Positions 5,720 through 33,987 of a DNA stretch of 64,000 bases are shown one piece after another. The translations under genes were made by a program, and so were the position numbers. Position 1 is the first letter of the stretch. Each line of letters starts with the position of its first letter. Under the pieces are notes generated by a model, which saw nothing but the letters and a program-made list of their open reading frames with translations, was not told the DNA's origin and searched no databases. This stretch comes from Capsulimonadales bacterium (GTDB lineage: Bacteria > Armatimonadota > Armatimonadia > Armatimonadales > Armatimonadaceae), in NCBI GenBank assembly GCA_033762295.1, contig JANRLW010000018.1, forward strand, positions 32,940 to 96,939, given 5' to 3'.

Positions 5720-6532
5720 ATGCGCTTCGGAATCGGCTCCTACACGTACGCCTGGGCGATCGGCGTCCCGGGATTCCCCGCGCCACCCAATCCGCTGGAT
5801 GCCTTTCGCCTGCTGGACAGAACGGTAGGATTCGGCCTGTCGGTCGTTCAAATCTGCGATAATCTTCCCCTGACGGACCTTGCCGAACGCGACCTGCAGG
5901 CGTTCGCGGAACGCGCTTTTTCCGCCGGAGTCCATATCGAGATCGGGACACGGGGAATCGACGAGACCAACCTCCGACAATATCTGGCGCTGGCGCGGCG
6001 TTTCCGCTCTCCGTTCGTACGCGTGGTCATCGACAGGGGAAGCGACGAACCGTCGCCCGAGGAGACCGTTCGTCGTCTGCGTCCGCTGGTCGCCGCCTTC
6101 GCCGCCGAAAACGTCGTCCTCGCTCTGGAAAATCACGACCGGTTCCCCGCCGACATCCTGGCGGATATCGTGGAGCGGTTGGGGCCGGAAACGGTGGGCA
6201 TCTGTCTGGATACCGTCAACTCCTTCGGTTCGCTGGAGGGTCCGGACGTGGTCATTCCGACCCTCGCGCCGTACGCGGTCAATCTGCATATCAAGGATTT
6301 CAGCATTCGTCGCGCAACCCACAACATGGGATTTCTGATCGAGGGCCAACCCGCCGGTCAGGGACGATTGAACATCCCGGAACTCCTCACCAGCCTTCCG
6401 AAATGCCAGACCGCCATCCTGGAACTCTGGACGCCGTACCAGGAAACGATCGCCCGGACCGTCGCTCTCGAAGCGCAATGGGCGGATGAAAGCGTCATCT
6501 ACCTGAAAAGTCTCCTCCCGTCACCGGCGTGA
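5720..6532 (+). CDS. oiaC: Xylose-isomerase-like TIM barrel, probable 3-oxo-isoapionate decarboxylase
   Basis: GIGSYTYAW, QICDNLPL, IEIGTRG, LENHDR, CLDTVNS and HIKDF (AP_endonuc_2 fold); follows apnL-apnO. Confidence 0.6.
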   Translation: MRFGIGSYTYAWAIGVPGFPAPPNPLDAFRLLDRTVGFGLSVVQICDNLPLTDLAERDLQAFAERAFSAGVHIEIGTRGIDETNLRQYLALARRFRSPFVRVVIDRGSDEPSPEETVRRLRPLVAAFAAENVVLALENHDRFPADILADIVERLGPETVGICLDTVNSFGSLEGPDVVIPTLAPYAVNLHIKDFSIRRATHNMGFLIEGQPAGQGRLNIPELLTSLPKCQTAILELWTPYQETIARTVALEAQWADESVIYLKSLLPSPA

Positions 6533-6573
6533 CGGTAGGAAAAACCCGCGATATACTGCGACAGGCACGAACG

Positions 6574-7002
6574 ATGAAACCTAACGCGACCGGTCGGATG
6601 ACCGCTTTCGGAAAAAACGCGTCGAACCTTCCCGGTCTGGTACGACGTCGGTTTTCTCGTCTCGCCCTGCCGCTGGCTCTTCTCTATGCTCTGCTGTTCG
6701 TCGGCATGACCTGGCACCCGCACGAGCAAAACGGAGTCGGAACCGGGGGAACGGTTTCATCGTACGCCTGCGCTCCGGTCGGTACGTCCCAACAGACGGA
6801 GGTACAATCCTCCCATGGCGTGCGAACGGGCTGTCCGGTCTGTGACTTTCTCATCCAACCGGTTCAACAGGCCGGCGTCCCGGAGCGTGCCTCCGAACCG
6901 CTCCTGGTTTTCTTCGATGCGCCGGTTGCCGAACGGCCCCTGCCCTACCTCCCCTATCGCTTCTGCGATCGCTCCGTCTCCCGCGGTCCTCCGGTTTCGT
7001 AG
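6574..7002 (+). CDS. DUF2946-like leader protein: TM segment, HPH, CPVC and C-terminal RGPP arrest-like motif
   Basis: ORF 6529..7002 contains LALPLALLYALLFVGMTWHPHE, GCPVCDF and SRGPPVS*. Start uncertain (6574 or 6598). Confidence 0.65.
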   Translation: MKPNATGRMTAFGKNASNLPGLVRRRFSRLALPLALLYALLFVGMTWHPHEQNGVGTGGTVSSYACAPVGTSQQTEVQSSHGVRTGCPVCDFLIQPVQQAGVPERASEPLLVFFDAPVAERPLPYLPYRFCDRSVSRGPPVS

Positions 7003-7218
7003 TCCTCTTTCCGCCCGCCGGGTAAACGTCCTTCCGTCCTTGAAGGCGTTCCCGAACGGTTCTCACCTCCGGCGCAGGCCCCTTCCGGCCCGTTTTCTGA
7101 GCGTCGAACCGGACGGACCGGCGTCCTGACACTTCTCCTGCCAACCTCTCGCGGCGCGTTCGACGGCCCTCTTCCGTTCGTGCGAGACGGTTCGCAGCCA
7201 GCGACTACGATTCCGGAG
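6989..7218 (+). promoter_or_regulatory. Putative translational attenuator: 6989-7004 pairs with the SD region 7203-7218
   Basis: The reverse complement of CTCCGGTTTCGTAGTC (6989-7004) is GACTACGAAACCGGAG. 7203-7218 reads GACTACGATTCCGGAG (14/16 match) and includes the GGAG SD of the gene at 7229. Confidence 0.6.
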
Positions 7219-7228
7219 ATAGATATTT

Positions 7229-8401
7229 ATGTCTGCCTTGTTTCGTCCGCCCATCGGGGGCGTTTCGATCGTCCGTACGGTTCGATGTTTCATCGGTCCG
7301 TTGATCGGTCTGTTCGTCCTTCTGTTCGCCCTGCCGGCCGGGGCGCACCAGTTTCAGGTGGAGCCGGTCAGTGTCACGATCCGCCCGCAGGCGACCTTCA
7401 TTCACGTCGAATTCGTCGGCAATGTTCAGGACATCACCCAGGCGGTGACGGTTCAGGATTCCGAGAAGCGCGGCGACGAATTCGCGCCCGAAGTTCTCCA
7501 GCGAATGACCGAGTATTTGAACGGTCACCTGTTCATCTCTCAGAACGGCGAGGCGCTTCCGGCCACCGTCACCGTTCTTCGCTTCCAGTCCGGCCTGGAC
7601 CCGACACAGGCGCGCTTCCGAATGGTGGCGCGGTATCCCCGTGCCATCGTCTCTAAGGACGCCGAAAAGGCCCCGATCACGATCACCTCCAACCTGTTCG
7701 ACTACCTGCCCAACGCCGTTTCGATGGTTACGGTCAGCGGACTGGTCCATAAGCTGGTTTCAGGCGACCCGACGAAAAACTCCGCGACGATCGATCCCTC
7801 GGCGTTCGCCTCGAATCTCTTCCGCAATATTCGCGATTTCCTCATCCTCGGGGCCGAGCATATCGTCACCGGTCCGGATCATATTCTGTTTATCCTTGCG
7901 TTCCTTCTCGTCGCTCCGAACCTTCCCTCCCTGATCCGAACGCTGACCGGTTTCACGATCGCACACTCCATCACCCTCGTACTGTCCACTCTCGGAATCG
8001 TTCAGTTCGATGCCCGAATCGTCGATATCGCCGTCGCCGCCTCGATCGTCTATGTCGGCGCGGAAAACTTCTTTCTCAAGGACATGAACCGGCGCTTCTG
8101 GGTCGCCAGCGGATTCGGGCTGGTGCATGGACTCGCCTTTGCCGGGAACCTGCGGGACGCCGGTCTTCCCGAAGGTTCCGCACTGTTCTGGAGTCTGCTG
8201 TCCTTCAACCTGGGGGTGGAGATCGCTCAGGTGATTCTCTGCCTGATCGCGTTTCCGCTGGTGACCCTGTGGCGCACCGGTGTGGAAAAACGCGCCCGAT
8301 CGGGGGCCATGACCTGGCCGGCCGTCATCCGTGTCACTTCCGCCGGGGTTATCATTGCCGGCGTCTACTGGCTCATACAGCGAGCCTTCGGGTCCGCCTG
8401 A
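7229..8401 (+). CDS. HupE/UreJ family protein (extracytoplasmic N-domain plus membrane domain), putative Ni/Co or other metal transporter
   Basis: [34 protein letters not shown] and FNLGVEIAQ motifs; signal peptide ending AGA-H. Confidence 0.85.
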
Positions 8402-8487
8402 AAACGGACCACCGGAAAAGGATTTCACCGAAACTCAATCATCGATTCGTACATCCGTCGTTGGTACATATCGGAAAAGGTAAGAAA

Positions 8488-9276
8488 ATGAAACCGTTGT
8501 TCGTTGGTCGCCCTGTTTGCGCCTCCGGGGCCAGGGCCGCCTTTACGCTGATCGAACTGCTCGTCGTCATCGCAATAATAGCGATACTGGCAGCCATCCT
8601 GTTCCCGGTCTTCGCCCAGGCCCGCGAAAAAGCCCGTCAGACGACCTGTCTTTCCAACCAGAAGCAGATCATGCTCGCTCAGATGATGTACGTCCAGGAC
8701 TATGACGAGCGGTTCTGTGAAACCCATCATGACCTGGAAGAAGGGGAAACGGTGGCGGACCTCTATGTCTGGTACCAGCCGCTGCAGCCCTATATCAAGA
8801 ACGATGGCATCTTCCGCTGCCCGTCGCTCAGCGATACGCCGACCCTCTTCCCGTCGTTTATGACGCCGGACATCTGGCGGACCGTCCGTACCGACTATCT
8901 GATCAACGGCTTTTTCTCCCATGGCATCGCCCTGGCGGCGGTAGCCACTCCCGCCGAACAGATCGTCATCGCCGAGCGGAATCGGAACATCGCGTTCTTC
9001 GATTACCATCCCTGGGCCTCCGCGCCGGACGGTCAGTGGGAGCGGGGCTTCATCGACGGATCGAACTACCGGCTGACCGATCCCGAGTCCGGCGCTCAGG
9101 TGATCGATCCCAGTAACCGGGGTCGCCATTCGGAGGGCAGCAACTACGGGTTCGCCGACGGTCACGTCAAGTATATGAAGTTCACCGCCACCCTCGACCG
9201 GAACAAACCGGTGGACGATGTCACCAACGTCGGCATGCACAACCGGGACAACCTGCCGCCGAACGACGAGCATTAA
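8488..9276 (+). CDS. DUF1559 / prepilin-type N-terminal cleavage-methylation protein with H-X9-DG motif
   Basis: [41 protein letters not shown]-terminal [16 protein letters not shown]. Confidence 0.9.
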
Positions 9277-32919: not shown

Positions 32920-33987
32920 GTGTATAAAGCTGTTCCACTGGACTCAACAAAGGCTGAACACGGCCTGGATCACAAATCTTTCCTCTTTCTGGCGGGCGCC
33001 CTCCTCGGAGTTCCCCTCGCCGTCTGGTTCCGCTTCTCCGTGACCGTGGACCCGGCTACCGGTGGTCTGCGCTATCAACCCCTGGGTCCGGTGGAGACGC
33101 TGGCCAAATCGGCGCTGCTCGTCGGCACCCTCTGTCTGATCGGGTTCTTTTTCTGGCTGGTCGAACGCACCTGGCCGGAGGACGCCGAACAGACGGTCGC
33201 CGCCGACGATCGCCGTTTGAATGCCCTCTATCTGGTTCTGAATCAGTGTGTCATGGTCCGGGTAGCGGCGACCGTTCTGGTCGCGGTCGCCTCCGGCTTC
33301 ACCCTGATGCACCTGCCGCGCATTCCTTCGTCCTGGATCGAAATGCAGCCGATCTGGCTTCAAACGCTGGAGATCGCTCTCCTGAAAGATTTTCTCGGAT
33401 ACTGGAATCACCGTATGTTCCATACGGTGCCCGCTCTCTGGCGATTCCATGCCGTCCACCACAGTTCCGAGCAGGTTCACTGGTTCTCGGCAACCCGCGA
33501 GCACCCCTTCGAGCAGATCGTCGGCAAGATGGTGACCGTCCTCCCGCTCTATCTTCTGGGCTTCCCCCTGACGGTTCTCGGTCCCTTCGTCGGCTTCTGG
33601 CTGATCTACCTGATGTTCCTCCATGCGAACGTCAACTGCTCCTTCGGTCCGATCGTTCGCTACCTGGTGGTCAGCCCGGCATTTCATCGCTGGCACCATA
33701 CCAATGAGGAGCAGGCGCTCGATCGAAACTACGCCACGCTGCTGCCGATCTGGGATTTCCTCTTCCGAACGGCCTACTTCCCCAAGAACGCTCATCCGAA
33801 GAGCTACGGACTCTATAAGGAAACGATGCCGACCGGTTTCTGGGCGCAGTTCCTCTACCCGTTCCGGCGCGCTGCCCGACCGGCCGATGTCGACCTGCCG
33901 GCGAAAACCGTGCCGACCGCACCGCCGGTTCCCGAACCGAACAAAGAACCGATCACCGCACCGGATCGCACACATCAGCCGGTCTGA
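32920..33987 (+). CDS. Sterol desaturase / fatty acid hydroxylase family protein
   Basis: His boxes HRMFH, FHAVHHS, FLHAN and FHRWHH; NYA..LPIWDFLF. Confidence 0.9.
   Translation: MYKAVPLDSTKAEHGLDHKSFLFLAGALLGVPLAVWFRFSVTVDPATGGLRYQPLGPVETLAKSALLVGTLCLIGFFFWLVERTWPEDAEQTVAADDRRLNALYLVLNQCVMVRVAATVLVAVASGFTLMHLPRIPSSWIEMQPIWLQTLEIALLKDFLGYWNHRMFHTVPALWRFHAVHHSSEQVHWFSATREHPFEQIVGKMVTVLPLYLLGFPLTVLGPFVGFWLIYLMFLHANVNCSFGPIVRYLVVSPAFHRWHHTNEEQALDRNYATLLPIWDFLFRTAYFPKNAHPKSYGLYKETMPTGFWAQFLYPFRRAARPADVDLPAKTVPTAPPVPEPNKEPITAPDRTHQPV

Follow-up and report, generated by a model that had tools for sequence, protein, structure and literature searches.

A predicted long-range RNA helix pairs the putative stall codons of a CruR-type leader with the Shine-Dalgarno sequence of a HupE/UreJ-like gene in an Armatimonadota genome

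Two members of the DUF2946 family have been studied and their outputs are different: CutF of Rhodobacter capsulatus acts through a local stem-loop that shields cutO's Shine-Dalgarno (SD) sequence and is opened by ribosome stalling (PMC9973294), and CruR of Bordetella pertussis is said to act through Rho-dependent termination across a long spacer (PMC9426467). [quoted passage not shown] Its arrest has been demonstrated in vitro, and in toeprints of the arrested ribosome the P site is occupied by the first Pro codon of RAPP and the A site by the second (PMC12992588). The authors of the CutF work expected stall-driven unmasking to be limited to short spacers (PMC9973294; bioRxiv 10.1101/2025.02.05.636593). 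Here we describe a locus of a Capsulimonadales bacterium (Armatimonadota; assembly GCA_033762295.1, contig JANRLW010000018.1) contained in a stretch of 64,000 nucleotides (contig positions 32,940 to 96,939, referred to hereafter as the window, whose own numbering we use) at which a leader open reading frame (ORF) with a CruR-like layout precedes a HupE/UreJ-like gene, and at which a long-range RNA helix is predicted to join the end of the leader to the SD of that gene. The whole analysis is computational, combining sequence comparison with RNA structure prediction, and the annotated parts of the locus lie on the forward (+) strand.

The two arms of the helix can be read directly from the sequence. 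The 5′ arm (6989–7004, CTCCGGTTTCGTAGTC) and the 3′ arm (7203–7218, GACTACGATTCCGGAG) were recovered by repeat search as an inverted repeat of 16 nt that is 88% complementary with 198 nt separating the arms, in agreement with the initial annotation, which had described complementarity at 14 of 16 positions with central U-U mismatches. The resulting helix comprises 6 base pairs, a 2x2 U-U internal loop, and a further 8 base pairs, with a duplex energy of −24.4 kcal/mol. The leader ends with the codons CGC (6982–6984, Arg), GGT (Gly), CCT (6988–6990, Pro), CCG (6991–6993, Pro), GTT (Val), TCG (Ser), and TAG (7000–7002), such that the 5′ arm begins inside the first Pro codon, at its second base, and ends 2 nt beyond the stop, and the Pro-Pro-Val-Ser-stop codons form the anti-SD strand. 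The 3′ arm ends in GGAG (7215–7218), located 10 nt upstream of the ATG at 7229, as expected from the earlier assignment of this element, some 200 nt away from the 5′ arm, as the SD of that ATG. The reading frame of the HupE/UreJ-like gene opens at 7223, and ATG 7229 is its first start because an in-frame TAG occupies 7220–7222.

Folding of 6950–7250, which had been suggested as a check on the pairing, gives a minimum free energy structure that contains the helix, and in folding windows of 260 to 730 nt its 14 pairs form with a probability of 0.94–1.00. The mean helix pair probability is 0.88–1.00 across 20–55 °C, and the GGAG at 7215–7218 is paired with a probability of 0.99–1.00. The intervening 198 nt (7005–7202) are C-rich and are predicted to adopt a multibranch fold closed by the helix. 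Before the 3′ arm has been transcribed, the partners of the 5′ arm are weaker and shifting (probability ≤ 0.7). A second long-range inverted repeat (7104–7118 and 7271–7285; 15 nt, 93% complementary, 152 nt apart) links the spacer to codons 15–19 of the HupE-like gene, and might help to hide the initiation region.

Could such a helix be a chance match in GC-rich DNA? A crude null would allow it, in that 11.5% of random GC-rich segment pairs of equal spacing reach a similar duplex energy (−27 kcal/mol); this null is uninformative, and the ribosome-binding region is itself AT-rich, with the stall zone (−15 to +15 around the first Pro codon) exceptional as a partner to it. More specific null tests reject chance. 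The pairing of the stall zone with the 24 nt preceding the ATG (−21.9 kcal/mol) is equaled nowhere else among 3271 windows taken from the two strands of the locus, and the value of −27.0 kcal/mol against the true ribosome-binding region is reached by just one of the 1190 other 36-mers containing CCNCCN in the 64-kb window, a control that allows for the inherent likeness of Pro-Pro codons to an anti-SD. The best partner of the ribosome-binding region among the 600 nt upstream is the stall zone. The helix might otherwise be the closing stem of a ligand-binding RNA (riboswitch) in the 226-nt spacer between the leader and the HupE-like gene; it encloses a structured domain of 198 nt and contains the SD, and HupE/UreJ genes are sometimes under riboswitch control. 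Yet an Rfam scan of 6400–7500 at E ≤ 10 returned two chance-level matches only, none of them within 7003–7228, and the spacers of related loci (described below) range from 78 to 226 nt in length and share no sequence similarity between genera by BLAST. The 5′ arm is, moreover, coding sequence of a conserved motif, which speaks against riboswitch and chance alike; that either of the two accounts for the helix is, we believe, very improbable.

The leader ORF (6574–7002) encodes 142 residues, arranged as a basic N-terminus, a hydrophobic anchor, His48/His50, CPVC, 46 residues, RGPP, Val-Ser, and the stop, as judged from its translation and from alignments. The N-terminus carries RRRFSR followed by LALPLALLYALLFVGM, which aligns with hydrophobic segments of all relatives and is read from the alignment as a putative anchor. 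The CPVC codons (6832–6843, C87–C90) specify a putative metal-binding CxxC, and the residues invariant in both of our alignments (A1, nine sequences; A3, 10 sequences) are H48, C87, C90, R137, P139, and P140. RGPP occupies residues 137–140 of 142, and relatives have either RAPP or RGPP followed by two to five residues. The distance from CxxC to RGPP, counted by hand on translations, is 46 residues in the window leader and 44–47 residues in four relatives; R[AG]PP, CxxC, and this spacing are invariant despite the leaders being otherwise very divergent.

Relatives of this leader were hard to reach by direct search. No Pfam match to DUF2946 was obtained for it even at E 10 (the gathering score of PF11162 is 23.7 bits, and the leader lies below it), and a whole-genome family scan did not pick it up as DUF2946. 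Searched as a protein against 41 genomes, the leader retrieved nothing but itself and a single marginal match, a word-indexed search of 5.8 billion proteins found only itself, two metagenome scans using leader alignments confirmed no locus, and a class-level search (71 genomes, the same set as for the order) found no close relative. Because the leader has neither a Pfam match nor close relatives, the family was reached via the downstream HupE-like gene: in 8 of 18 loci with near-full-length relatives of the HupE-like protein (L006–L023), a leader-type ORF of 108–143 residues ending in R[AG]PP plus two to five residues lies upstream, in every case with a basic N-terminus, a hydrophobic segment, His residues, and CxxC. 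The family profile retrieved 39 proteins from a library of 1.84 billion, 23 of which have DUF2946 as their best Pfam match at E ≤ 0.01 (10 of these above the cut-off). One of these 10, P0038, scores 27.1 bits for DUF2946 and is 37% identical to the window leader (E 5e-20). The leader tail PYLPYRFCDRSVSRGPP (6934–6999, residues 121–142) is common to P0038, P0042, P0050, and P0052, and is found in looser form in P0040, P0047, and P0051; the tail of the subgroup that includes the window leader can be written PYLPYRFCDRS-SR[AG]PP. The ~18 conserved residues before PP would be the look expected of an arrest segment that contacts the exit tunnel. On sequence grounds we class the leader as a divergent, sub-threshold relative of DUF2946, of CruR/CutF type and not a Pfam member, since its link to the family is indirect and runs via the profile matches and the identity to P0038.

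A paralogous CruR-like leader (L062; CPFC ... RAPPLA-stop, DUF2946 score a sub-threshold 20.7 bits) is present on the same contig ~28 kb before the start of the window, and 375 nt after it comes an ORF that by eye resembles an ABC ATPase (Walker-A-like GVNGAGKT).

We take the element to be real and probably functional, and we find it rather likely that it works as a stall-opened anti-SD switch, in which the logic of SecM and CutF is applied to a CruR-type sensor across a 198-nt loop. The leader would act as a nascent-chain metal sensor that pauses on its C-terminal RGPP; on the same mRNA, 6989–7004 would pair with 7203–7218, burying the GGAG of the HupE/UreJ-like gene. A stall on the RGPP codons (CGC GGT CCT CCG, 6982–6993) is predicted, by analogy with CruR, to place CCT 6988–6990 in the P site and CCG 6991–6993 in the A site. 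Ribosomes have a footprint of approximately −15 to +15 nt, and the footprint drawn from this P site (6973–7003) includes 15 of the 16 nucleotides in the 5′ arm, which a ribosome held on RGPP would thus cover. During the stall, and already while RNA polymerase is transcribing the spacer, the helix would be blocked and a second ribosome could load at 7215–7231; once the arrest is released, the ribosome would terminate at 7000–7002 and leave, the helix would close, and the transporter gene would be poorly translated. In the folding model, blocking 6973–7003 costs 12 kcal/mol and lowers the cost of opening 7211–7241 from 11.5 to 8.3 kcal/mol.

RGPP would be expected to stall ribosomes in the host organism, and metal at the CxxC/His site would be expected to control the stall. 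The neighbors of the leader, both in the window and at sister loci, look like uptake functions, and we therefore expect the polarity of CruR, in which bound metal would lead to release and turn the gene off. The CxxC points to Cu, by analogy with CruR, and HupE/UreJ proteins are usually linked to Ni/Co (PMC9973294; bioRxiv 10.1101/2025.02.05.636593). The initial annotation had likened the locus to secM-secA and mifM-yidC2; the SD-masking logic of that comparison is retained, whereas the leader itself appears to be a metal-sensing one of CruR/CutF type and not a monitor of Sec or YidC.

The same helix geometry, taken alone, is compatible with plain translational coupling, for which the long-distance interaction between the coat and replicase genes of phage MS2 is an example: ribosomes reading 6989–7002 would briefly open the helix with no regulated arrest, such that the output of the downstream gene would merely track translation of the leader, and a ribosome terminating at 6997–7002 also covers the 5′ arm. 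This would leave the conservation of the leader to be accounted for, as the invariant R[AG]PP, the CxxC, and the 44–47-residue spacing argue for a sensing arrest peptide, and both RAPP and RGPP are robust arrest cores (PMC12992588). We regard coupling as improbable.

Support for a stall-opened switch also comes from related loci. We assembled 21 of these from eight genera of the phylum (14 sequence-distinct groups, noting that groups inside one genus are not independent) and folded each with ~420 nt of upstream context; the stall zone makes up 5–6% of the folded RNA, and the SD window was 13 nt. In the folding ensembles, the SD window is paired with the stall zone at 12 of the 21 loci (the window, L051, seven of the eight loci from genus g6, L046, L052, and L058), corresponding to 6 of 14 groups and to at least one locus in six of the eight genera. 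Tested against within-locus nulls, 7 of the 14 groups reach p ≤ 0.05, and the Fisher combined P is 5.6e-9 (5.4e-7 without the window). In related leaders, then, the stall zone pairs with the following gene's ribosome-binding site more often than expected by chance. The paired sequences vary from genus to genus (for example, CUCCGG/CCGGAG in the window, UCCACC/GGUGGA in g6, and GCCUCGC/GCGAGG in L051) and, given that the spacers of different genera also lack similarity by BLAST, it is the architecture that is kept and not the sequence.

Several results weigh against this reading. Pairing is essentially absent from the full-context ensemble of 9 of 21 loci; L048, the only other locus at which the leader lies directly before the HupE-like gene, has no such helix, and L049 and L050 show pairing in short-context folds only. 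Start codons of the downstream genes in related loci were picked by eye from the SD and signal peptide. No close relative of the window leader was found for a comparison of its own helix, and RNAalifold applied to eight g6 sequences recovers a closing helix that lacks double-sided changes (covariation term, +0.59); on the other side, the comparison with orthologs that the initial annotation had called for does yield stall-zone/ribosome-binding-site pairing with different sequences, at the 12 loci listed above, albeit with little covariation inside g6. At 27 canonical R[AG]PP DUF2946 loci from one proteobacterial order, with starts called automatically, only five of the 27 attain p ≤ 0.05, for a Fisher P of 0.007. 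Permutation tests of cognate versus non-cognate pairs (P about 5e-5 to 1.5e-4) were discounted, being inflated because segments of one genome share base composition; a within-locus, composition-controlled null shrank the proteobacterial signal to a weak one. The energetics are also modest. The claim that the helix occludes the SD agrees with the near-complete pairing of GGAG, but the further claim that a stall frees the SD is only partly reproduced, as the modeled gain from blocking the stall zone is only 3.2 kcal/mol and GGAG remains mostly paired (mean unpaired probability 0.16) because a weak AU-rich local hairpin (7217–7221 with 7230–7234) replaces the long-range helix.

Individual loci outside the phylum nevertheless have clear helices. 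At L071, for example, a canonical DUF2946 locus in a gammaproteobacterial genome, the codons immediately following RAPP (CCUGAAAAUC) form a perfect 10-nt match with GAUUUUCAGG, a sequence overlapping the next gene's AGGAG 88 nt downstream.

The nine related loci that lack anti-SD pairing must have another output, and this bears on the question of whether Rho-dependent attenuation is the real output here, with a stalled ribosome shielding a C-rich rut site and keeping Rho off the polymerase, and the helix shaping the spacer or adding a minor layer. Rho-dependent termination is the published output of CruR (PMC9426467), which also counts against masking of the SD as the main route. The composition of the locus fits: the 78-nt segment 6934–7011 has a C/G ratio of 2.4, above the 99th percentile (2.0) of the 64-kb window, the C/G ratio of the spacer is 1.42, and C exceeds G in the spacers of 13 of 15 related loci. 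However, an excess of C over G is not equal to rut activity, the spacer is to a large extent base-paired in the predicted fold, and a reading based on Rho leaves unexplained why the partner of the SD should be the stall zone, both in the window and in the six locus groups. Rho termination and SD masking are not mutually exclusive, and the Rho route could be the main one where the helix is missing; as the real output at this locus we consider it unlikely. Coupling, a riboswitch, and chance are the less likely readings.

Across 6300–7400, the + strand holds a single sigma-70-like promoter match (GTGACG, 17-nt spacer, TATACT; 6529–6557), just upstream of the leader ATG; this is a consensus match only, and the consensus may not be that of the phylum. 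The same consensus scan, which is weak evidence, found no sigma-70-like promoter in the spacer (7003–7228). A look for sequencing runs over 6500–7500 returned none. Leader and HupE-like gene are probably carried on one transcript, as an operon. The proposed regulated gene (7229–8401) encodes a HupE/UreJ-like membrane protein of 390 residues with a signal peptide and an extra N-terminal domain (Pfam HupE_UreJ_2, E 1.7e-39), and the third gene of the cluster (8482–9276) encodes a DUF1559/N-terminal-methylation (pilin-like) protein (Pfam SBP_bac_10 and N_methyl). Of 61 related genomes, 38 contain a match to the HupE-like protein at E ≤ 1e-10, with ~20 of the matches near full length at 44–59% identity; a search of contigs for related loci with this protein gave only two irrelevant short matches. 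The HupE-like orthologs have GGAGGAG at a comparable distance before their ATG.

Related genera hold the same three genes in a different order, and sister leaders are followed by a DUF1559 pilin-like gene, MotA_ExbB, or a TonB-receptor Plug protein. In genus g6 (L014, L016, L017, L019, L020, and L037–L045), the order is leader, DUF1559, HupE-like, with a FUR-family gene directly upstream, and the spacer has two conserved inner hairpins, one of which contains the leader stop codon. In three loci of genus g7 (L009, L011, and L012), a pilin-like gene (N-terminus FTLMEIVV or FSLVELMV) ends 10–12 nt ahead of the HupE-like start; inspection of ~1.4 kb of upstream sequence at these three loci revealed no R[AG]PP leader, and the family profile found no leader in six g7 genomes.

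Extending the proposal to the phylum, we tentatively suggest, as a possibility that we hold in some doubt, that its CruR-type arrest leaders directly control translation of their targets (HupE-like, DUF1559 pilin-like, ExbB, and TonB-receptor proteins), with the stall and stop codons forming the anti-SD strand, its partner up to ~200 nt away, and the spacer possibly serving as a timer. If this is true, the gene would come on only when the stall lasts longer than the polymerase needs to transcribe the spacer, a stalled ribosome could unmask an SD even across a long intergenic region, against what was expected for CutF-like genes, and CruR-type loci would combine translational with Rho-dependent control. 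Being concrete and easy to mutate, the locus lends itself to testing whether translational gating operates at long-spacer CruR-like loci as well, and it would link metal-responsive control with a HupE/UreJ-like transporter and with the very large, uncharacterized family of DUF1559 pilin-like proteins, in a phylum that lacks genetics. Because the class of mechanism is established, the locus extends known biology and adds no new principle.

Comparison with known systems places the locus between the two studied DUF2946 members. CutF-cutO shares with it a small exported or anchored leader, a Cys metal site, a C-terminal proline stalling motif, and an mRNA structure over the SD of the next gene that is opened by the stalled ribosome (PMC9973294). 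Some CutF-like proteins also adjoin HupE/UreJ genes (PMC9973294; bioRxiv 10.1101/2025.02.05.636593), although those neighbors belonged to His-only clusters. CutF differs in having CxxxC and PPP, in that copper induces the stall and turns a detoxifying oxidase on, and in that its stem-loop is local with a short spacer (PMC9973294), whereas the locus described here has CxxC, 46 residues, and RGPP, a long-range helix whose 5′ arm consists of the stall and stop codons, and 198 nt between the arms in a spacer of 226 nt. CruR (bp2923)-bfrG is the closer match on the side of the sensor, having a signal/anchor, CXXC, ~45 residues, and R-A/G-P-P two to three residues from the end, and heading a metal-uptake operon whose spacer is long and G+C-rich (162 nt; PMC9426467); sister loci of the window leader precede TonB-dependent receptor and ExbB genes. 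The published output of CruR is different, and neither “Shine” nor “hairpin” occurs in that paper (PMC9426467). The present locus differs in turn from CruR in that its leader falls below the Pfam DUF2946 threshold and its targets are HupE/UreJ-like and DUF1559 pilin-like.

SecM-secA, MifM-yidC2, and VemP-secDF2 likewise rely on an arrest motif at the C-terminus of a leader that is exported or anchored, with the stall disrupting an SD-sequestering structure, and the RAPP/RGPP arrest peptides include ApdA, ApdP, and ApcA, the last of which has the same RGPP core. The present locus departs from these systems in that its downstream gene is not a Sec or YidC component, its leader carries a metal-site signature, and the loop is ~200 nt long in place of a compact hairpin. 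In the main texts consulted on RAPP/RGPP arrest peptides and DUF2946/CruR, no CruR-type locus is described as having a long-range SD helix. The 198-nt distance matters because the CutF authors had expected unmasking to be confined to short spacers, and what differs here is the combination of a CruR-type sensor with an SD mask, this distance, the targets, and the phylum.

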